From an uncultured Acidobacteriota bacterium (lineage in GTDB: Bacteria > Acidobacteriota > Vicinamibacteria > Vicinamibacterales > Fen-181), in the NCBI GenBank assembly GCA_963727765.1, contig CAVSGZ010000013.1, forward strand, positions 559,956-623,955: 64,000 bases of DNA, read 5' to 3'. Positions 10,719 through 61,358 of the stretch are shown here, piece by piece (the first letter of the stretch is position 1; each line of letters begins with the position of its first letter). The notes under the pieces are model-generated. The model was not told the DNA's origin. It did not search any database and saw nothing but the letters and a program-made list of their open reading frames with translations. The position numbers were made by a program, and so were the translations under genes.

Positions 10719-12107
10719 ATGTCTGATACCGCTAAACATCTGCTCATCGTCGAAGACGAGGCGCCGCTGCGCGAGGTGGTGGCCGAGCGGCTGGCGGACC
10801 GCGGCTACTTCGTGGTCGAAGCCGCCAACGGCGAAGAGGCCATCGAGCGGCTGGCCGAGTTCGCCTTCGATGTCGTCATCACGGATCTCCGCCTGCCCGG
10901 CGTCGATGGCAGCAAGGTGCTCGAGGCCGCGATTGCGCGATACCCCGACATTATCGGCATCGTGGTCACCGGATACGGCACGGTGAAGGATGCGGTCGAG
11001 GCGATCAAGCGCGGCGCCACGGATTTCGTCACCAAGCCGTTCCAGTTCGACGAGCTGCTCCACGCACTCGAGTCGGCGCTCGAGCAGCGGCGGCTGCGGT
11101 CCGAGAACGCCTACCTCAGGTCGCAGCTCGAACGCCGCTACAGCTTCACCGGGATCGTCGGCCGCAGCGGGCCGATGCGCGATCTCTTCCAGCTGCTCGA
11201 GACCGTGTCGGTGACCAACAGCACGATCCTCGTCACCGGCGAGACAGGCACGGGCAAGGAGCTGGTGGCCCGCGCGATTCACCACAACAGCCTGCGGCGA
11301 AGCGGCCCGTTCGTGGCGCTCAACTGCAGCGCGATTCCCGAGACGCTGCTGGAGGCCGAGTTGTTCGGCCACGTGCGCGGCGCCTTCACCGGCGCCGTCG
11401 GCACGCGCGTCGGGCGGTTCGAGCAGGCGCACAAGGGCACGCTGCTGCTCGACGAAGTGGGGACGATGGGCGGGCCGCTGCAGATGAAGCTGCTGCGGGC
11501 GCTGCAGGAGCGCGAGGTGGAACGCATCGGCGACTCGCGGCCGATCAAGGTGGACGTGCGCGTGATCGCGGCCACCAACAGCGACCTCGCCCGGCTTGTC
11601 GCCGAGGGTCGGTTCCGCGAAGACCTCTACTACCGCCTCAACGTCATTCCCGTGAGGCTGCCGCCGCTTCGCGATCGACGCGAGGATATCCCGCTGCTCG
11701 TGCAGCACTTTCTCGATCGGTTCTGCCGCGAGTTCGCGCCGCCGCGGCCGCCGATGACCGTGTCGCAGCAGGCCATGCGCCGGCTGATGGCCTACTCGTG
11801 GCCCGGCAACGTGCGGCAGCTCGAGAACGCGCTCGAGCGCGCCGTCGCGCTCGGGGCCGGGCGCCCGCAGATCGAGCTCGTGGACCTCCCGCCGGACGTG
11901 CAGGAGCTGGGGCCCTCGCCTGCCTCCTCGGGGTTCGGGCTGCCCGAGGGCGGGATCGACCTGCAGGAGTACGTCTCGAACATCGAGCGCGCGCTGATCC
12001 ACCAGTCGCTCGAGCGCGCTGGCGGCAACAAGGGGCGCGCGGCGCAGCTGCTCAACCTGAAGCGCACGACGCTCGTCGAGAAGCTGAAGCGTCTAGACCG
12101 GGAGTGA
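10719..12107 (+). CDS. sigma54-dependent response regulator (REC-AAA+-HTH; NtrC/FleQ/FlrC family)
   Basis: Receiver with TDLRLP, GETGTGKE Walker A, GAFTGA loop, YRLNV, AAQLLNLKRTTLVEKLKR HTH (FleQ-type ending). Confidence 0.93.
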   Translation: MSDTAKHLLIVEDEAPLREVVAERLADRGYFVVEAANGEEAIERLAEFAFDVVITDLRLPGVDGSKVLEAAIARYPDIIGIVVTGYGTVKDAVEAIKRGATDFVTKPFQFDELLHALESALEQRRLRSENAYLRSQLERRYSFTGIVGRSGPMRDLFQLLETVSVTNSTILVTGETGTGKELVARAIHHNSLRRSGPFVALNCSAIPETLLEAELFGHVRGAFTGAVGTRVGRFEQAHKGTLLLDEVGTMGGPLQMKLLRALQEREVERIGDSRPIKVDVRVIAATNSDLARLVAEGRFREDLYYRLNVIPVRLPPLRDRREDIPLLVQHFLDRFCREFAPPRPPMTVSQQAMRRLMAYSWPGNVRQLENALERAVALGAGRPQIELVDLPPDVQELGPSPASSGFGLPEGGIDLQEYVSNIERALIHQSLERAGGNKGRAAQLLNLKRTTLVEKLKRLDRE

Positions 12108-12907: not shown

Positions 12908-12971
12908 GACTACTCAGCGAAGGACCCGATCCCTCGGCGAAGGCTCCGATTCCTCAGCGTCAGTTCCGATT
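12908..12971 (+). repeat. 20-bp tandem repeat array (3 units plus a partial), orphan copy ending at an ATG
   Basis: gactactcagcgaaggaccc / gatccctcggcgaaggctcc / gattcctcagcgtcagttcc / gatt then ATG at 12972. Confidence 0.9.
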
Positions 12972-13322
12972 ATGTTGTTCCACGTCGTCCTCTTTCGTCC
13001 CCGCACCGACCTGGGCGCCGCCGACCGGGCCAGTCTCGTGGAAGCGCTGGAGGCGGCCCTGCAGCAAGTTCCGTCCATCAGGCGCTTTCACGTCGGGCGC
13101 CGCGTGACGCACGGCGCCGGGTACGAGTCTGCCGTGCCGGCGCCGCTCGATTACGCGGCCATCATCGAGTTCGACGACCTGCCCGCGCTCCAGGCGTATC
13201 TCGGCCATCCGGCGCACGTGGCGCTCGGCCAGCGCTTCATGCGCTCGCTGGAAGCGTCGGCCATCTTCGATTACCAGATGCAGGACGTGGAGGAACTCCG
13301 TCGGCTCGCGCAGTCGGAGTGA
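12972..13322 (+). CDS. Dabb family (stress-responsive A/B barrel) protein
   Basis: HVVLF...VPSIRRFHVGR...IEFDDLPALQAYLGHPAH...IFDY pattern. Confidence 0.85.
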   Translation: MLFHVVLFRPRTDLGAADRASLVEALEAALQQVPSIRRFHVGRRVTHGAGYESAVPAPLDYAAIIEFDDLPALQAYLGHPAHVALGQRFMRSLEASAIFDYQMQDVEELRRLAQSE

Positions 13323-14890: not shown

Positions 14891-15958
14891 CTACGAAAAA
14901 TGCCGTGCAATCTCCCCGCGCAGCCCCGCGATCGAATCGACGTGGTTCACGGCGACGCGCAGGCGGGAGCCGCCGGGCAGACCCCTGGTGTACCAGGTGC
15001 ACAGCGCCCTGAGCTTGTTGATCACCCAGCGCTCGCGGCCGTGTGCCGGGTTCGCGTCGCGGGGTTCCCCGGCGGACTTGCGGTCGGCGTCCTCTTCCGG
15101 TCCGGTGGTGGCGGCGTCCGCCCCGTTGGCGACGTGGCGGAAGCCGGGTGATTCATCGGCCGGATCGGCGAGCAGCAAATCGATGTAGTCGAGCAGGAAG
15201 CGTCGCCGCTCGGCGGGCGTGATGGCCTGGATCGGGCGGTTCGCGGCACAGGAGGTCGCCTGGGCGAAGATCCACGGGTTGCGCAGTGCGCCGCGGCCGA
15301 CGAGCACGCCGGCCACGCCGGTTTCCTCCATCCGTCGCACCAGGTCTTCCGGCTCGACGCAGTCGCCGTTGCCCAGCACCGGGATCGACACCGCCCGCGC
15401 CACGCGCCCGATGAGCTCCCAGTCGGCGCGTCCGCTGTAGGCCTGTGCGGCAGTCCGCCCGTGCACTGTGATGGCTGATGCCCCGGCGTGTTCCAGTCGC
15501 CGCGCCAGCTCGGGCGCGTTCGTCTCGCGGTCGTCCCAGCCGGTGCGCATCTTCACTGTCACCGGGATCGAGACCGCCCGCGCCATCGCCTGTACGATCG
15601 CCGCCGCCCGTTCCGGATCGCGCATCAGGCTGCAGCCGGCGCGGTTCCTGGCGACTTTCGGCACCGGGCAGCCCATGTTGATGTCGACGGCATCGGCGCC
15701 GATCCGCTCGACAACCTGCGCCGCCACCGCCATCTTCCCGGGATCGCCGCCGAAGATCTGGACGGCGACCGGGCGCTCTTCCTCGGTGAACTCGGCGTAC
15801 TCGAGCGTCCGGTCGATCCCGCGCACGAGGCCCTCGCTGCTGACCATCTCGGTCACGACGAGGCCGCAGCCGCCGTGGCGCTTGACCAGGCGCCGGAACG
15901 CCGTGTCGGTCAGGCCGGCCATTGGGGCGAGGCCGAAGGGGGAAGACAGGGGGATCAC
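14891..15958 (-). CDS. dusB: tRNA-dihydrouridine synthase (DusB family)
   Basis: LAPMAGLTD, TEMVS, DINMGCPVPKV, VTVKMRTGW, VHGRT, GNGD, GRGALRNPWIF. Confidence 0.92.
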   Translation of the reverse strand: MIPLSSPFGLAPMAGLTDTAFRRLVKRHGGCGLVVTEMVSSEGLVRGIDRTLEYAEFTEEERPVAVQIFGGDPGKMAVAAQVVERIGADAVDINMGCPVPKVARNRAGCSLMRDPERAAAIVQAMARAVSIPVTVKMRTGWDDRETNAPELARRLEHAGASAITVHGRTAAQAYSGRADWELIGRVARAVSIPVLGNGDCVEPEDLVRRMEETGVAGVLVGRGALRNPWIFAQATSCAANRPIQAITPAERRRFLLDYIDLLLADPADESPGFRHVANGADAATTGPEEDADRKSAGEPRDANPAHGRERWVINKLRALCTWYTRGLPGGSRLRVAVNHVDSIAGLRGEIARHFS

Positions 15959-15959
15959 G

Positions 15960-16080
15960 GTAGTCGGTTACTTCGCAGAGTAGTCGGGTGTTTCACTGAG
16001 CGATCGGGGGCTTCGCAGAGTAGTCGGGGGCTTTGCTGAGTGATCGGTTGCTTCGCTGAATAGTTGGTTGGCTCGCCAAG
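15960..16080 (-). repeat. 20-bp tandem repeat array (about 6 units), downstream arm of the four-helix cassette
   Basis: Plus strand tagtcggttacttcgcagag / tagtcgggtgtttcactgag / cgatcgggggcttcgcagag / tagtcgggggctttgctgag...; reverse complement of the 16559-16783 family. Confidence 0.9.
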
Positions 16081-16103
16081 GAAATGACTCTCGCGTCAAG
16101 TCG

Positions 16104-16517
16104 TCAACTGCCCTGATGAGCTCTCGGCCATGGTGCCTGTCGTCTGTCCCTTCGGTCCGATCGGAGCAGGTAGTTGATGAGGCCAGAGAGCATGCGGAGA
16201 ATCTCCGCTCCGTCTCTGCCCAGCCTCTCGGCGTCCCCAACTGAGAGGCGGCCTCTCACGTGTGCCACCAACACGTGCGCCCTCGCTTCGGCGCACGATC
16301 CTCGCGCGATGCACAGGTAACGCGCGAAACCCCGATCCGTCCCCTGTTCAAACCCCTCCGACAGGTTCGCCAGGATGGAGTCTGCGCACGCGTCGATCTG
16401 CTCGCGGAGACGTTGGTCCTGCGACAGGCCCCCGCGGCGCACGACGGCAGAAAGCGCCTCGACAAACCGCCGCGCGGCTTGCCAAACCTGCAATTCCTCT
16501 ACTGAATTGACCTGCAT
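16104..16517 (-). CDS. Four helix bundle protein (TIGR02436 / 23S rRNA IVS protein family)
   Basis: SVEELQVWQ...LREQIDACADSILANLSEGFEQ...FARYLCIARGSCAE family pattern. Confidence 0.88.
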   Translation of the reverse strand: MQVNSVEELQVWQAARRFVEALSAVVRRGGLSQDQRLREQIDACADSILANLSEGFEQGTDRGFARYLCIARGSCAEARAHVLVAHVRGRLSVGDAERLGRDGAEILRMLSGLINYLLRSDRRDRRQAPWPRAHQGS

Positions 16518-16529
16518 GCGCGGCAGCCG

Positions 16530-16546
16530 TGCACCGCGCGTGCCAA
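16530..16546 (-). promoter_or_regulatory. sigma54-type promoter of the four-helix gene (probably near-leaderless)
   Basis: Minus strand TTGGCACGCGCGGTGCA (GG-N10-GC); ATG starts 14 nt after the GC; no SD. Confidence 0.6.
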
Positions 16547-16558
16547 GTTGCCACTCCG

Positions 16559-16783
16559 GACTACGCAGTGAAGGGTGCGACTTCTCCGCGAAGCCCCCGA
16601 TTCCTCAGCGTCAGTTCCGACTTCTCAGCGCAGGCCCCGACTTCTCGGCGTCAGGTTCGACTACTCAGCGAAGGGTCCGAATCTCGGCGAAGGCCCCGAC
16701 TCCTCCGCGAAGCCCCCGATTCCTCAGCGTCAGTTCCGACTTCTCAGCGCAGGCCCCGACTTCTCGGCGTCAGTTCCGACTAC
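16559..16783 (+). repeat. 20-bp tandem repeat array (11 units) with a 119-bp higher-order duplication; upstream arm of the cassette
   Basis: Units such as gacttctccgcgaagccccc, gattcctcagcgtcagttcc, gacttctcagcgcaggcccc; block 16579-16658 recurs at 16698-16777. Confidence 0.95.
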
Positions 16784-17274
16784 GTCAGGTACGGCTTGAC
16801 GTCCGCGGCATCCACCGTGGTGGCCACCGCCCGGCCAATCAGCTCGACCGAGAGCACGAGCCGCGCGTGCCGGTCCTTCTTGATGAGCAGGCCGGTGACG
16901 CCCTTGAGCGGGCCGTGGATCACTTCGACGCGGGACCCTTCGTTGATGAACGGGCACGGGTCGTACTGGAGGTCGCTCGTCACGAGCCGCCGCACCGCGT
17001 CCACCTCGACGTCGGGAATCGGCGCGAGCTTGCCGTCGAAGGAGACGATGGTCGCCACCCCGGTGCAGGCGAGCACGCGCAGGGCCTCGGCCGGGTCGAA
17101 GCGGGCGAAGCAGTAGCCCGGGAACAGCGGCCAGTCGATCTGCTTGCGGCGATCTTTCCAGCGGCTCCAGCGGGGCACCGTCGGCAGGAAGACCTCGACG
17201 CCTTTCCGCACGAGTTGCTCGTGGACCGCCTTCTCGGCGCGCGATCGCGTCCAGACGGCAAACCACGGCGGCAC
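16780..17274 (-). CDS. UpxY/NusG-family transcription antiterminator paralog
   Basis: WFAVWTRSRAEKAV...RWKDRRKQIDWPLFPGYCFARF NGN domain; GSRVEVIHGPLKGVTG KOW motif; GTG start 2 nt after the upstream stop. Confidence 0.88.
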   Translation of the reverse strand: MPPWFAVWTRSRAEKAVHEQLVRKGVEVFLPTVPRWSRWKDRRKQIDWPLFPGYCFARFDPAEALRVLACTGVATIVSFDGKLAPIPDVEVDAVRRLVTSDLQYDPCPFINEGSRVEVIHGPLKGVTGLLIKKDRHARLVLSVELIGRAVATTVDAADVKPYLT

Positions 17275-17276
17275 GG

Positions 17277-18335
17277 CTATTTCTTCTCCGGCGGGGGGGC
17301 GGCGGCGACAAGCGCGTCCTCCGCGACCTTCTGCTCGAAGAGCTTCTTGAGCTCCGGGTTCTTCCAGTCGAGCACGGCCTGCGCCCGGAGCTTCTGTATG
17401 TAGCGGCTGTACTCGGCCGCCTGCTTCGTGTTGGCCACGCGGTTCCCGATGTCCTCGCGCGCCTGATCCCACGGCAGCAGCGTCGGCTCGTTGAGCGTTT
17501 CGACCTTGAAGATCTGGTAGCCGCTCTGCGTCCGGATCACCGGCGTGATCTGCCCGGCTTTGAGCGGCTCGAGGATCTTCCGCAGTGCCGGCGCGAGGTC
17601 GGTCATGTTGATCGGCCCGATCAGGCCGCCGTTGGCCTTCGAGGCGGCCGTCGAGACCTCGGCCACGGCCTTCTCGAAGCTCTCGCCGCCCTGGAGCTGC
17701 TGGGCGAGCGCGTCCGCCTTGGCTTTCGCCGTCGGGTCGTCCGCGGTCGGCGACACGGGGATCAGGATCTCGCGCAGCATCAGCGTCGCCGGCGACGTGA
17801 ACTCGGCCTTGTGCGCCTCGTAGTACGCCTTCGCCTCGGCCTCGGTGACCGAGATGTGCCCGAGCACTTCGTTGCCCTGCACTTCCTGGATGATCATCGA
17901 CTTCTCGAGGCGCGCCCGCAGCTCGGCCATCGTCATGTTCTCGTTCTTGAGGGCCTGCTGAAACTGCTCTTCGGTCTCGATCTTGTTTTCCTTCTTGATG
18001 TTGTCGATGACCTGCTTGAGCTTCTCCTCGGTCAGGTGGTAGCCCAGCTCCTTGCCGCGCTGCAGGAGGAGCAGCTCGTCGACCGCCTCCACGATGACCT
18101 GGGGCGTGATCTCGGCCAGCATCTTCGTCAGTTCCGCGTTGGTCATCGACTGCGGGTTCTCCCGCCTCGCCTTGACGACCGCCGACTGCCGCGTCTCGAG
18201 ATCGCTCTGCGTGATGATGTCGTCGTTCACCTTCACGAGGACCCGCTCGATGATCTCCGCGCGCGGCACGGCCGCGCCGAGCGTGACCAGACCGAGGAGG
18301 ACGACGAGCCCGCGAGCGAGAGGATACTTGGTCAT
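17277..18335 (-). CDS. SurA/PrsA-type peptidyl-prolyl isomerase
   Basis: Signal peptide; IIERVLVKVNDDIITQSDL SurA N-domain; parvulin domain (LREILI...GESFEKA...ANGGLIG...GQITPVIRTQSGYQIFKV). Confidence 0.88.
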   Translation of the reverse strand: MTKYPLARGLVVLLGLVTLGAAVPRAEIIERVLVKVNDDIITQSDLETRQSAVVKARRENPQSMTNAELTKMLAEITPQVIVEAVDELLLLQRGKELGYHLTEEKLKQVIDNIKKENKIETEEQFQQALKNENMTMAELRARLEKSMIIQEVQGNEVLGHISVTEAEAKAYYEAHKAEFTSPATLMLREILIPVSPTADDPTAKAKADALAQQLQGGESFEKAVAEVSTAASKANGGLIGPINMTDLAPALRKILEPLKAGQITPVIRTQSGYQIFKVETLNEPTLLPWDQAREDIGNRVANTKQAAEYSRYIQKLRAQAVLDWKNPELKKLFEQKVAEDALVAAAPPPEKK

Positions 18336-30758: not shown

Positions 30759-30963
30759 GGATCCTCTCCGGTTCACGCCTTGCGACTGACGCCCTGCGGC
30801 TCGGGGCCCGGGCCCGGAGGCTTCACGGCTCGGGCCCGCTCGCCGTCGCGTCACAATGACCACATAGTCATTAGAGTGACCCTGCGGTCACCCTGCCGAC
30901 CAAGCGGTCTTTCGTCCGAACCGACCACACACTCGAAGGCGCCGATTGACAAGCGTCCGCTCT

Positions 30964-31048
30964 GATTCCTCTGCGTCAGCGCCGATTCCTCCGCGTCAGT
31001 GCCGATTCCTCACCGTCAGCCCCGATTCCTCTGCGTCAGTTCCGACTA
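30964..31048 (+). repeat. 20-bp tandem repeat array (4 units), orphan copy supplying the parB stop
   Basis: gattcctctgcgtcagcgcc / gattcctccgcgtcagtgcc / gattcctcaccgtcagcccc / gattcctctgcgtcagttcc / gacta. Confidence 0.92.
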
Positions 31049-61252: not shown

Positions 61253-61358
61253 GGGGAACCGGGATCGGGGATCAGGGTTCAGGGATCAGCGATCGGGGAT
61301 CGCGATCCGGCGCATCGTGCGTCCCTGATCCCGGACCCCCGGCCCCCGATCCCTGATT
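61253..61358. repeat. Inverted heptamer arrays forming a long hairpin between serS and tRNA-Ser
   Basis: ggggaac cgggatc ggggatc agggttc agggatc agcgatc ggggatc ... gtccct gatcccg gaccccc ggccccc gatccct gat. Confidence 0.85.

Follow-up and report, generated by a model that had tools for sequence, protein, structure and literature searches.

Proteins of the PF05635/TIGR02436 family are numerous and widespread and are known mainly as open reading frames (ORFs) in intervening sequences (IVSs) of 23S rRNA; we know of no function for them outside DGRs. Genes between inverted repeats are also familiar from REP/BIME and RAYT systems (REPINs), in which short intergenic repeats are dispersed and inverted, and the RAYT gene is flanked by inverted repeat copies. 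In Coxiella burnetii, the 23S IVS is 428 nt long, has a 28-bp stem formed by terminal inverted repeats, carries an S23p ORF, and is excised by RNase III (PMC4990558). Such IVSs occur sporadically and are regarded as selfish (PMC4990558). Rehm et al. (2015, PMC4692102) described convergent GGGAATC heptamer pairs in Xanthomonas and GGGGA(T/C)T repeats in Nostoc. These heptamers are G-rich, tandem, and intergenic, and often form convergent pairs able to adopt stem-loops or cruciforms; the position of the arrays is kept among close relatives while their length varies, and the role of the over-represented heptamers was left open (PMC4692102). In addition, 23S_rRNA_IVP genes were found in cas operons, e.g., between cmr3 and cmr2 in Pleurocapsa PCC 7327 (Zhang and Ye 2014, PMC3936711).

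We analyzed a window of 64,000 nucleotides (the whole stretch of DNA under study) from an uncultured Acidobacteriota bacterium, in which a PF05635 gene separates two inverted tandem arrays between upxY and dusB. The features are, in the sense of the gene:

16780..17472, minus strand: gene of a UpxY/NusG-like antiterminator; upstream host gene (NF033644, 4.7e-31, 108 bits, cut-off 100; PF02357, 2.1e-17)
16554..16783, minus strand: 5' arm, built of ~11 degenerate 20-mer units whose minus strand is G-rich (Tandem Repeats Finder [TRF] and register print)
16530..16545, minus strand: sigma-54-type -24/-12 element TGGCACGCGCGGTGCA, 10/11 consensus positions, GG and GC in place
16104..16517, minus strand: gene of a PF05635/TIGR02436 four-helix-bundle protein, 137 aa, pI 9.6, with a basic C-terminal tail
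15959..16085, minus strand: 3' arm, built of ~6 reverse-complement 20-mer units whose minus strand is C-rich (TRF and register print)
14891..15958, minus strand: dusB, encoding a tRNA dihydrouridine synthase; downstream host gene (PF01207, 1.8e-84)

The upxY ORF start as listed is probably too far upstream, with the NusG domain beginning at residue 70.

TRF called period-20 arrays at 15960-16064 (5.2 copies) and 16554-16769 (10.8 copies), and called the right array also as period 40 at 16578-16781. Printed in register, the right array resolved into ~11 units, each consisting of CCGAYTNCTC and a variable half, and the left array into ~6 units of the reverse complement. The original prediction of a gene at 16104-16517 enclosed by inverted arrays was thereby borne out. 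Reading of the sequence showed that the stop codon of upxY (16780-16782) belongs to the first arm unit and that the last unit of the 3' arm directly adjoins the GTG start of dusB (15956-15958), so that the element takes up the entire upxY-dusB spacer. No transposase or integrase was present among the ORFs read or annotated between 10.5 and 22.2 kb of the window, again as predicted. Within 15700-17000, there was no rRNA match and no Rfam hit near gathering score; Rfam also returned nothing for 20 loci of the broad survey described below, picked mostly for weak flank scores. Among the DNA contigs of the sequencing runs X1-X4, a single joint was seen, in X1, leading from 16627 to 16755 (127 letters skipped) with a shorter side of 21 letters; these contigs are short and fragmentary and leave several parts uncovered.

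The predicted family assignment held, with matches to TIGR02436 (6.2e-21, 74.7 bits, cut-off 24) and PF05635 (1.1e-21, 77.5 bits, cut-off 33.8; profile positions 1-106 of 106). In an alignment of 16 sequences including the cassette protein, L9, Q40, S47, N51, E54, G55, S74, and E77 were invariant, and the cassette protein retains S-x3-N-x2-E-G and G-S-x2-E, both conserved in the family. Its subfamily lacks the R of the family motif GxxRxxxSxxxNxxE as published (PMC3936711). The sequence also matched PDB 2GSC (XCC0516; E = 1.3e-5, residues 7-119), the structure of which is a pentamer of four-helix bundles, as given in a title cited in PMC3936711. Family proteins are basic (median pI, 9.25; n = 32), with a value of 9.58 for the cassette protein. 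The homologous four-helix-bundle fold and the basic character are shared with the DGR accessory protein Avd (PMC10053308). Unlike Avd of DGRs, which is encoded beside a reverse transcriptase, the cassette gene stands alone: RVT_1 gave 0 matches in this genome (97.8% complete), there were no template/variable repeats, and an Avd-type DGR context was hence lacking.

The two arms have the potential to pair around the gene. Minus-strand RNA of 15950-16790 folded at -416.2 kcal/mol, compared with -357.3 ± 7.75 kcal/mol for 20 dinucleotide shuffles (z = -7.61; reached by 0/20), and both the MFE and the centroid structure joined the arms around the ORF, in agreement with the original prediction. Local alignment of the 200-nt upstream flank to the reverse-complemented 200-nt downstream flank scored 55, with a maximum of 36 among the controls (3000 random segments of the same genome). 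Two other metrics were given up. Sharing of 8-mers between flanks was dropped as a genome-wide metric because this genome, at 68% GC, gave too noisy a background (99th percentile, 14; upxY-dusB locus, 20; a copy on contig C7, only 9). RNA duplex energy of 160-nt flanks, in which the GC-rich background dominates (2/31 loci under the control 1st percentile; upxY-dusB locus, z = -7.9), was replaced by the stringent local alignment.

Comparison of the upxY-dusB junction across relatives revealed a polymorphic site, ranging from arms plus gene to empty, as the search for an empty site had been meant to reveal. Both arms and gene were present in the genome under study (G000) and in G009, G006, G002, and G005. 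G010 and G011 have arms but no gene, G001 has one unit, and G003 and the outgroups G025 and G019 have neither arms nor gene. Unit numbers at this one site amounted to ~19+8 in G010, 1+4 in G011, and 11+6 in G000. Even sister genomes differed (G005 from G001 and G002 from G003, each pair supported 100/99), and the sporadic presence among close relatives that is a criterion for IVSs was thus observed here. In a DusB tree, every subclade of the genus has arms and gene and all 5 outgroups are empty, a distribution that fits a single gain in the genus followed by losses. At the seemingly empty junction of G003, UpxY and DusB are fused in frame, with 204 open codons upstream, as expected if a deletion took out the upxY stop, since this stop lies inside the first arm unit. 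Arms and gene are accordingly gained and lost at this junction, and we consider it probable that the element is an inserted cassette that has repeatedly been lost. Two further ideas about the junction were abandoned. Empty sites might couple upxY to dusB translationally, but outgroup spacers measure ~26-90 nt and G003 is a fusion; an inversion switch is not supported, because the gene is co-directional with its neighbors in 5/5 upxY-dusB carriers.

The search of G000 yielded 4 PF05635 matches. Each of the three intact PF05635 genes is embedded in tandem arrays, and two of the three occupy the apex of a split inverted hairpin. Elsewhere in this genome, copies and remnants are located as follows:

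C12:269386-269703: PF05635 copy inside 20-mer arrays
C7:43501-43812: PF05635 copy between inverted 7-mer arrays
C8:480243-480365: truncated PF05635 remnant
C11:107100-107480: internally deleted PF05635 remnant at the thiS site, still flanked by GGATTCG-type and CCTGAAT-type arms

Across the genome, copies of the core CCGAYT lie 20 nt apart in 84 instances, compared to ~2 at neighboring spacings. A census of 40 20-mer loci comprised 31 single arrays, 7 tight hairpins, and 2 split hairpins, with no pairs in the opposite order, and both split hairpins enclose PF05635 genes. The proposed link between the arrays and four-helix cargo was therefore recovered in the genome scan. GxxExxY, DUF559, and TA cargo, also proposed, was not seen in split hairpins of G000, where the other cargo was an IS256-family transposase in another split 20-mer hairpin (C4:209866-211597). 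The only Y1_Tnp gene of G000 (C5:13141-13485) is flanked by its own AATCACTCCGGGAGTGATT palindromes and not by arrays of this kind. In REPIN/RAYT systems, the flanked gene is a Y1 transposase, whereas the cassette encodes a four-helix bundle and its units are tandem and not individually palindromic.

As the thiS site illustrates, arms outlive the gene. Cargo-less tight hairpin pairs numbered 34 in G000, and G015, a genome with no PF05635 match, yet had 2 tight hairpins in 200 kb; arms therefore do not need the gene. G028, with 6 PF05635 matches, had 0 tight hairpins in the 200 kb sampled. Overall, tight hairpins numbered 2 in 510 kb of three genomes without PF05635 matches versus 8 in 600 kb of three genomes with them, G015 and G028 each running against this difference. 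Among the ~7 distinct sites of G000 that correspond to cassette sites of relatives, 3 have arms (2 of them with gene remnants) and 4 have no TRF arrays, so lost cassettes do not always leave arms behind.

The hairpin-around-gene architecture is very probably real and family-wide. In relatives, flank alignment placed 21 of 32 PF05635 loci above the 99th percentile of 3000 random segments and 18 of 32 above the 99.9th. G024 alone had 15 of 17 PF05635 copies with scores of at least 36, the unit being different in each and the best nucleotide identity between cassettes being 67%. Beyond the relatives, the family was sampled by the best 80 of 580 matches to one subfamily query. Among these best 80 of 580, 60 of 78 scored loci from other phyla showed z of at least 5, with 0/100 shuffles reaching the score, 53 of 78 had TRF arrays on both sides, and 59 of 76, from many phyla, had complementary flanks versus 0/145 matched pseudo-cargo positions at the same loci. 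The flank test was failed by 17 of 76 of these broad loci (from the best 80 of 580) and by 11 of 32 loci of relatives, some of the misses being artifacts of start/stop picks.

In general, the arms consist of 7-mers in tandem, in some cases of 8- or 9-mers; the 20-mer described originally turned out to be only a local variant. The unit differs from locus to locus while both arms stay complementary, and G exceeds C in the 5' arm at 88 of 93 loci. Median sizes are 34 nt for the arm, 429 nt for the loop, and 504 nt for the element; for comparison, the Coxiella IVS has 428 nt and a 28-bp stem (PMC4990558). Cultured carriers include Luteimonas soli KCTC 42441 (L068) and Ramlibacter cellulosilyticus USB13 (L075). 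The upxY-dusB element does not qualify as a MITE or insertion sequence: it contains no transposase, and cassette copies within a genome share no more than 67% nucleotide identity and have different arms. Paralogs within a genome are old and lend no support to recent mobility. We identified no transposase, integrase, or target duplication, the last without a systematic search.

In this lineage, a sigma-54-type element stands at a fixed 11-12 nt before the ATG. At the upxY-dusB locus, TGGCACGCGCGGTGCA, scored against the 11 positions of the sigma-54 -24/-12 consensus, ends 12 nt before the ATG, a distance which implies a leaderless or near-leaderless transcript. The element is kept at the orthologous locus in G009, G006, G002, and G005. 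Matches to at least 9 of 11 consensus positions were found in 11/111 sense-upstream sequences versus 0/111 antisense, 1/109 downstream, and 1/111 far-upstream sequences. Nine of the 11 sense-upstream matches belong to this lineage, 5 of these lying 11-12 nt before the ATG; outside it the motif is rare (2 of 11 matches), and its distances are atypical. Both rpoN and rnc are present in G000, and no sigma-70 promoter-like or intrinsic terminator-like site was detected in 15800-16900. Since every locus has its own unit sequence, we rejected the idea that the arrays serve as enhancer-binding-protein sites for the sigma-54 promoter. With a promoter-like element of its own, the gene need not "hide" in the operon mRNA, as had been proposed, and a transcript from this internal promoter would hold the 3' arm only.

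A stem selected in the sense RNA should have more G·U than A·C pairs. Over 93 loci, we counted 3294 Watson-Crick positions, 129 sense G·U, 159 A·C, and 282 transversion mismatches. The difference between G·U and A·C lay in the wrong direction (binomial p = 0.087; per-locus sign test, 30 versus 36). Nothing in these counts points to RNA-level selection on the stem, and they speak against reading the element as an mRNA IVS. This central part of the original prediction was thus upheld in part: architecture, insertion polymorphism, and Coxiella-like size favor it, while the absence of a G·U bias (129 versus 159) and the gene's own sigma-54-type element do not.

As in the 23S IVSs of C. burnetii and Leptospira, the PF05635/S23p ORF lies inside stem-forming terminal inverted repeats (PMC4990558), and like them the cassette is sporadic. 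The 23S IVSs are located in a helix of 23S rRNA (9, 25, or 45), whereas the cassette lies between the protein-coding genes upxY and dusB, its arms are tandem arrays of short units, and it has, in this lineage, its own sigma-54-type element. We interpret it as an IVS-type hairpin cassette, with a PF05635 gene in the loop of a tandem-unit inverted repeat, gained by the ancestor of the genus, and put the chances of this interpretation at roughly even. Mechanistically, the gene would be transcribed alone from the -24/-12 promoter as a leaderless mRNA. In transcripts reading through from upxY, the arms might pair and loop out the cassette, and the paired arms might serve as a double-stranded substrate for RNase III, insulating the host operon as in 23S rRNA; that such pairing and insulation take place is, in our assessment, doubtful. 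Complementarity of the arms would be kept at the DNA level, by slippage and templated correction within the hairpin and not by RNA-level selection, because mismatches are strand-symmetric.

The same symmetry is compatible with the arrays being autonomous. Inverted arrays might be REP-like or SSR-like hairpins arising from slippage and palindrome correction, whose apices are insertion hot spots where PF05635 genes, like IS elements, land and survive, the arms being useless to the gene. We regard this as unlikely, although it accommodates the 34 tight cargo-less hairpins of G000, the predominance of tight over split 20-mer hairpins (7 versus 2), the hairpins of G015 in the absence of a PF05635 match, and the arms-only junctions of G010 and G011. 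The IS256-family transposase in the split hairpin on C4 fits apices as general insertion sites, and the 70 and 75 convergent heptamer pairs of Xanthomonas have no stated cargo in the main text of PMC4692102. Against it, some mechanism of unknown nature would have to aim a transposase-less gene at hairpin apices in many phyla; arms are found at 59/76 PF05635 loci (best 80 of 580) and at 0/145 neighboring control positions, and G028 combines 6 PF05635 matches with no tight hairpin in the 200 kb sampled. Moreover, the decayed gene with arms left at the thiS site means that cargo-less hairpins can be relics, and the tree of the upxY-dusB site favors joint gain of arms and gene, then loss.

We also considered that the basic, Avd-like protein could bind hairpins of tandem repeats and either maintain or propagate them, so that the gene would be flanked by the repeats that its protein serves, in analogy to RAYT and REPINs. 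A gene between inverted copies of a repeat dispersed genome-wide, as RAYT genes lie between REPs, would be in line with this, as would the basic pI values (median 9.25, n = 32; cassette protein, 9.58), the conserved 7-nt period with free unit sequence, and homology to the XCC0516 pentamer of four-helix bundles and to Avd (PMC10053308). It appears very unlikely, however: the PF05635 family is without a known catalytic domain, unit families in G000 far outnumber the genes, G015 has hairpins without the gene and G028 genes without sampled hairpins, each G024 copy has its own unit with no evidence of unit dispersal, and the lack of RVT_1 in G000 leaves no DGR-type partner. Equally slight is the probability we assign to a switch at the DNA level, in which the arrays act as contingency-type simple sequence repeats or a cruciform, and their copy number, or their extrusion, adjusts either the cassette's sigma-54 promoter or dusB expression without RNA processing. 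Unit number at the same site indeed varies widely (~19+8, 1+4, and 11+6), the arms are in contact with the stop of upxY and the start of dusB, the promoter lies between arm and ATG, and strand-symmetric mismatches fit a DNA structure. Yet the sole joint seen in the DNA contigs had a shorter side of just 21 letters, very different downstream genes follow this architecture elsewhere, and the sigma-54 element is missing at most loci outside this lineage.

Returning to the hairpin cassette, its stem-plus-ORF layout matches that of the RNase III-excised 23S IVS, and we therefore treat the latter as a special case: the analogy suggests that the ribosomal IVS may be one instance of a general hairpin cassette. 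Searches of the open-access literature, with the supplementary neighbor-gene tables of PMC4692102 and PMC4679880 outside this scope, turned up no description of PF05635 genes flanked by inverted tandem arrays. The main text of PMC4692102 contains neither "23S" nor "four-helix bundle" and names no cargo, whereas here a PF05635 gene splits the pair. The cas-operon genes are wedged between two operon genes (PMC3936711) much like the cassette between upxY and dusB; the account of that case in PMC3936711 mentions no flanking repeats and reads the association as functional with CRISPR-Cas. A far-reaching version, which we hold to be quite improbable, would make all "IVS proteins" the cargo of one ancient, widespread class of hairpin-bounded cassettes, with tandem-heptamer arms both created and held complementary in cis by a dedicated mechanism of 7-nt period that ignores unit sequence and uses the Avd-like pentamer, and with ribosomal IVSs, the abundant cargo-less heptamer hairpins of many genomes (such as the Xanthomonas GGGAATC pairs), and the 20-mer arrays as products or relics of one element.

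If PF05635 genes generally ride in the loops of tandem-repeat hairpins, the ribosomal IVS would be an instance of a general cassette, and the heptamers of bacterial genomes, whether over-represented repeats or convergent pairs, would gain a concrete genetic partner. Reported links of PF05635 to cas and other operons may then be insertions and not functional associations. Complementary arms with locus-specific units also offer unusually clean natural covariation data on selection for structure at the DNA versus the RNA level.

The window is C13:559956-623955 of its host genome (G000; 3.71 Mb, 68% GC, 13 contigs) and encodes a small ORF between upxY and dusB on the minus strand, arranged as follows.

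Features of the upxY-dusB locus, in gene order
Most upstream of the listed genes, minus strand: Mfd, then a SurA-like isomerase
16780-17472, minus strand: UpxY/NusG-like factor, 5' of the small ORF
16554-16769/16781: 5' arm array, period 20 (Tandem Repeats Finder [TRF]; ~11 units in register)
16530-16545: sigma-54-type element TGGCACGCGCGGTGCA, separating the 5' arm from the ATG (10/11 consensus positions)
16104-16517, minus strand: PF05635/TIGR02436 ORF, 137 aa, between upxY and dusB
15960-16064: 3' arm array, period 20 (TRF; ~6 units in register)
14891-15958, minus strand: dusB, 3' of the small ORF

Profile searches identified the 137-aa ORF as a full-length member of PF05635 (77.5 bits; cutoff, 33.8)/TIGR02436 (74.7 bits; cutoff, 24). 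Its sole solved relative by sequence was XCC0516 (PDB 2GSC, E = 1.3e-5). According to the consulted sections of several papers taken jointly, four-helix bundles assemble into a pentamer in XCC0516, and the family name stems from the ORF of an intervening sequence (IVS) in 23S rRNA (PMC3936711, PMC10053308, PMC10910872, PMC4692102, PMC4679880, PMC4990558). Printed in register, both arrays proved to be built from a single degenerate 20-mer, inverted in one arm relative to the other, in agreement with the original observation of a gene enclosed by inverted arrays. Since the upxY stop codon lies inside the first arm unit and the last unit directly adjoins the dusB start codon, the element makes up the entire upxY-dusB spacer. 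Neither a sigma-70-like promoter nor an intrinsic terminator was found within 15800-16900, and comparison with Rfam gave no family match at the locus.

The arms were able to pair and, as had been anticipated, did so better than shuffled controls. The minus-strand RNA of 15950-16790 folded at -416.2 kcal/mol, compared with -357.3 ± 7.75 kcal/mol for 20 dinucleotide shuffles (z = -7.61; 0/20 as low), and the MFE and centroid structures alike joined the 5' arm to the 3' arm around the ORF. Because tandem arms pair in several registers, a full stem is obtained even with unequal unit numbers. Under stringent local alignment, the 200-nt upstream flank and the reverse-complemented 200-nt downstream flank scored 55, while 3,000 random gene-sized segments of the same genome had a 99.9th percentile of 35 and a maximum of 36.

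Within G000, the CCGAYT core occurred 84 times at 20-nt spacing, versus ~2 times at other spacings. A census of the 20-mer (TRF plus core) yielded 40 loci: 31 single arrays, 7 tight hairpins with a G-rich arm followed by a C-rich arm (gap ≤58 nt), and 2 split hairpins (gaps of 489 and 533 nt); none of the 9 pairs had the opposite arm order. The proposed link between the 20-mer and four-helix cargo held, as both split hairpins (window locus and C12:269386-269703) contain a PF05635 gene. A further split hairpin at C4:209866-211597 (11 units, then 5 reverse-complement units, 1.5 kb apart) encloses an IS256-family transposase gene (210198-211457; PF00872, 2.8e-118); therefore, hairpin apices host an insertion sequence too. 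Arrays of 7-mers and 14-mers numbered in the hundreds, with 34 tight inverted pairs lacking cargo. On either strand, the G-rich arm came first in 88 of 93 PF05635 cassettes and in 26 of 34 cargo-less hairpins of G000, a polarity for which one possible reason is that it keeps C-rich RNA from exposure to Rho.

One hairpin of G000 (C10:22911-23082) had a left arm of CAGGATT heptamers and a right arm of 20-mers; at its site, the related genome G026 carries a PF05635 cassette (locus L014). This mixed hairpin, together with period-21 arrays in relatives, suggests that three heptamers gave rise to the 20-mer as a higher-order unit. Elsewhere in the window, a 2.3-unit 20-mer array (12913-12959) lies ahead of a Dabb-domain gene (12972-13322, PF07876), a 4.3-unit 20-mer array (30953-31039) lies beside a putative ParB-like gene, and 61253-61348 forms a tight GGGGATC heptamer hairpin.

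PF05635 was represented in G000 by three intact genes plus a truncated match. Of the intact genes, the third (C7:43501-43812) is flanked by inverted 7-mer arrays of the ACGCCTT and GTAAGGC types. At the thiS locus (C11:107100-107480), GGATTCG-type and CCTGAAT-type heptamer arms surround a 286-nt, internally deleted remnant with N- and C-terminal residues still recognizable; the gene is intact there in at least five relatives. A truncated remnant is also kept at a histidine-kinase/response-regulator locus. When TRF was applied to the flanks of 30 loci from 24 related genomes, most had an array on the upstream side matched by its reverse complement on the downstream side, with units specific to the locus (CAGTTTT/ACTGAAA, GGATTCG/GAATCCT, CGAGTGA/TCACTCG, 8-mers, 9-mers, and, in the ortholog of the window locus, 20-mers). 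By flank alignment, 21 of 32 loci in relatives exceeded the control 99th percentile and 18 the 99.9th; several misses arose because ORFs run into the array, so that the flank windows began too late. In genome G024, 15 of 17 PF05635 copies scored ≥36. The unit is different in each copy, and the cassettes represent old paralogs (top nucleotide identity between them, 67%).

A broader sample, taken by pattern search with one genome per species, comprised the best 80 of 580 matches to one subfamily query and covered Chloroflexota, Planctomycetota, Acidobacteriota, Gemmatimonadota, several proteobacterial classes, Bacteroidota, Verrucomicrobiota, and others. Flank complementarity reached z ≥ 5, with 0/100 shuffles equaling the score, in 60 of 78 scorable loci, and TRF arrays, mostly of 7-mers, stood on both sides in 53 of the 78. 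In the matched control, 59 of 76 real loci were positive versus 0 of 145 pseudo-cargo positions within the same loci. The extreme case was a Planctomycetota MAG locus (L088) with ~34 CGGTGGA copies upstream and ~34 CCACCGT copies downstream of the gene (score, 260; z = 63).

Comparison of the dusB neighborhood in 15 genomes bore out the expectation that relatives would include an empty upxY-dusB junction. Arms and gene were present in G000, G009, G006, G002, and G005, with units ranging from 20-mers to ~7-8-mers (G006). Arms without the gene were found in G010 (~19 + 8 units) and G011 (1 + 4 units), and a single unit in G001. The junction held neither arms nor gene in G003 and in two outgroups (G025, G019); four more genomes had no upxY at dusB. 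In the DusB tree, carriers occurred in every subclade of the genus, all five outgroups were empty, and two sister pairs with 100/99 support each, G005/G001 and G002/G003, differed in state. The simplest reading is one gain and four losses. In G003, UpxY and DusB are fused in frame (L124, on its contig C13; one 538-aa open frame, with 204 codons open ahead of dusB), apparently the leftover of a cassette deletion that took the arm unit with the upxY stop codon. The arms outlast the gene, and the cassette comes and goes as a block.

The sigma-54-type element TGGCACGCGCGGTGCA ends 12 nt ahead of the PF05635 ATG. Elements matching ≥9/11 positions were found in 11 of 111 sense-upstream regions, compared with 0/111 antisense, 1/109 downstream, and 1/111 far upstream; 9 of the 11 belonged to the window lineage, 5 of these lying 11-12 nt from the ATG. 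The element is kept in the orthologs of G009, G006, G002, and G005, whose arms differ. Similar -24/-12 boxes occur at the C7 and C12 copies of G000 and at loci L014 and L018. The genome contains rpoN, and window positions 10719-12107 (plus strand) encode a predicted sigma-54 enhancer-binding response regulator. Judged from sequence, the PF05635 transcript is probably regulated independently and leaderless, and the element, at its fixed distance of 11-12 nt from the ATG in the window lineage, would give rise to it.

Geometry was determined for 93 loci past a looser threshold, which 3.7% of random segments also pass; medians were 34 nt for the aligned arm, 429 nt for the loop, and 504 nt for the whole element. 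The layout, a stem surrounding an ORF, and its dimensions resemble those of the Coxiella 23S IVS. According to the consulted part of PMC4990558, that IVS spans 428 nt, a 28-bp stem of terminal inverted repeats encloses its S23p ORF, and RNase III excises the element. By this analogy, the arms of a read-through transcript would form a double-stranded stem cleaved by RNase III, and rnc was found in the genome. Among 3,864 aligned arm positions, however, 129 sense G·U, 159 A·C, and 282 transversion mismatches were counted, which does not back RNA-level selection on the stem. The proposed mRNA counterpart of the IVS stands in its architecture and insertion behavior; its RNA pairing or excision is unproven and, in the mismatch test, unsupported. 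The arms stay complementary while their sequence turns over, and the symmetric mismatches fit a DNA-level process (slippage with templated correction in the hairpin) or DNA structure. Alternatively, turnover may be too quick for selection to be visible.

Hairpins might instead have come first, their apices serving as insertion sites for genes. The transposase within a split 20-mer hairpin, the numerous cargo-less hairpins, and genome G015, with hairpins yet no PF05635 match, favor this order of events, but the contrast between PF05635 loci and matched control positions and the hairpins containing gene remnants weaken it, and we consider it unlikely. Still less probable is a RAYT/REPIN-like role in which the PF05635 protein serves the repeats: it is basic (pI 9.6; family median, 9.25), but unit families do not match genes in number, G015 has hairpins only, and G028 has genes with no tight hairpin in the 200 kb sampled. 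We regard a DNA-level switch operated by the arrays as similarly improbable. The only Y1 transposase-like gene of G000 (PF01797, 34.9 bits), within C5:12842-13645, has palindromes of its own, AATCACTCCGGGAGTGATT on both sides. The arrangement is RAYT-like but has no relation to the tandem arrays; a RAYT system was accordingly rejected. Avd is homologous to PF05635 proteins (PMC10053308, consulted sections); a DGR at the locus was excluded, as a search of the genome for reverse transcriptases came up empty.

In the consulted sections of earlier work, PF05635 genes are seen wedged in cas operons (PMC3936711), and Xanthomonas and some cyanobacteria are rich in heptamer repeats and in convergent heptamer pairs, to which no function is assigned (PMC4692102, PMC4679880). 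Our literature search, which covered main texts, returned no paper tying the family to flanking inverted tandem arrays. The gene-in-hairpin observation is confirmed here and extended beyond the window locus: flanking arrays go with the PF05635 gene family, not with the 20-mer.
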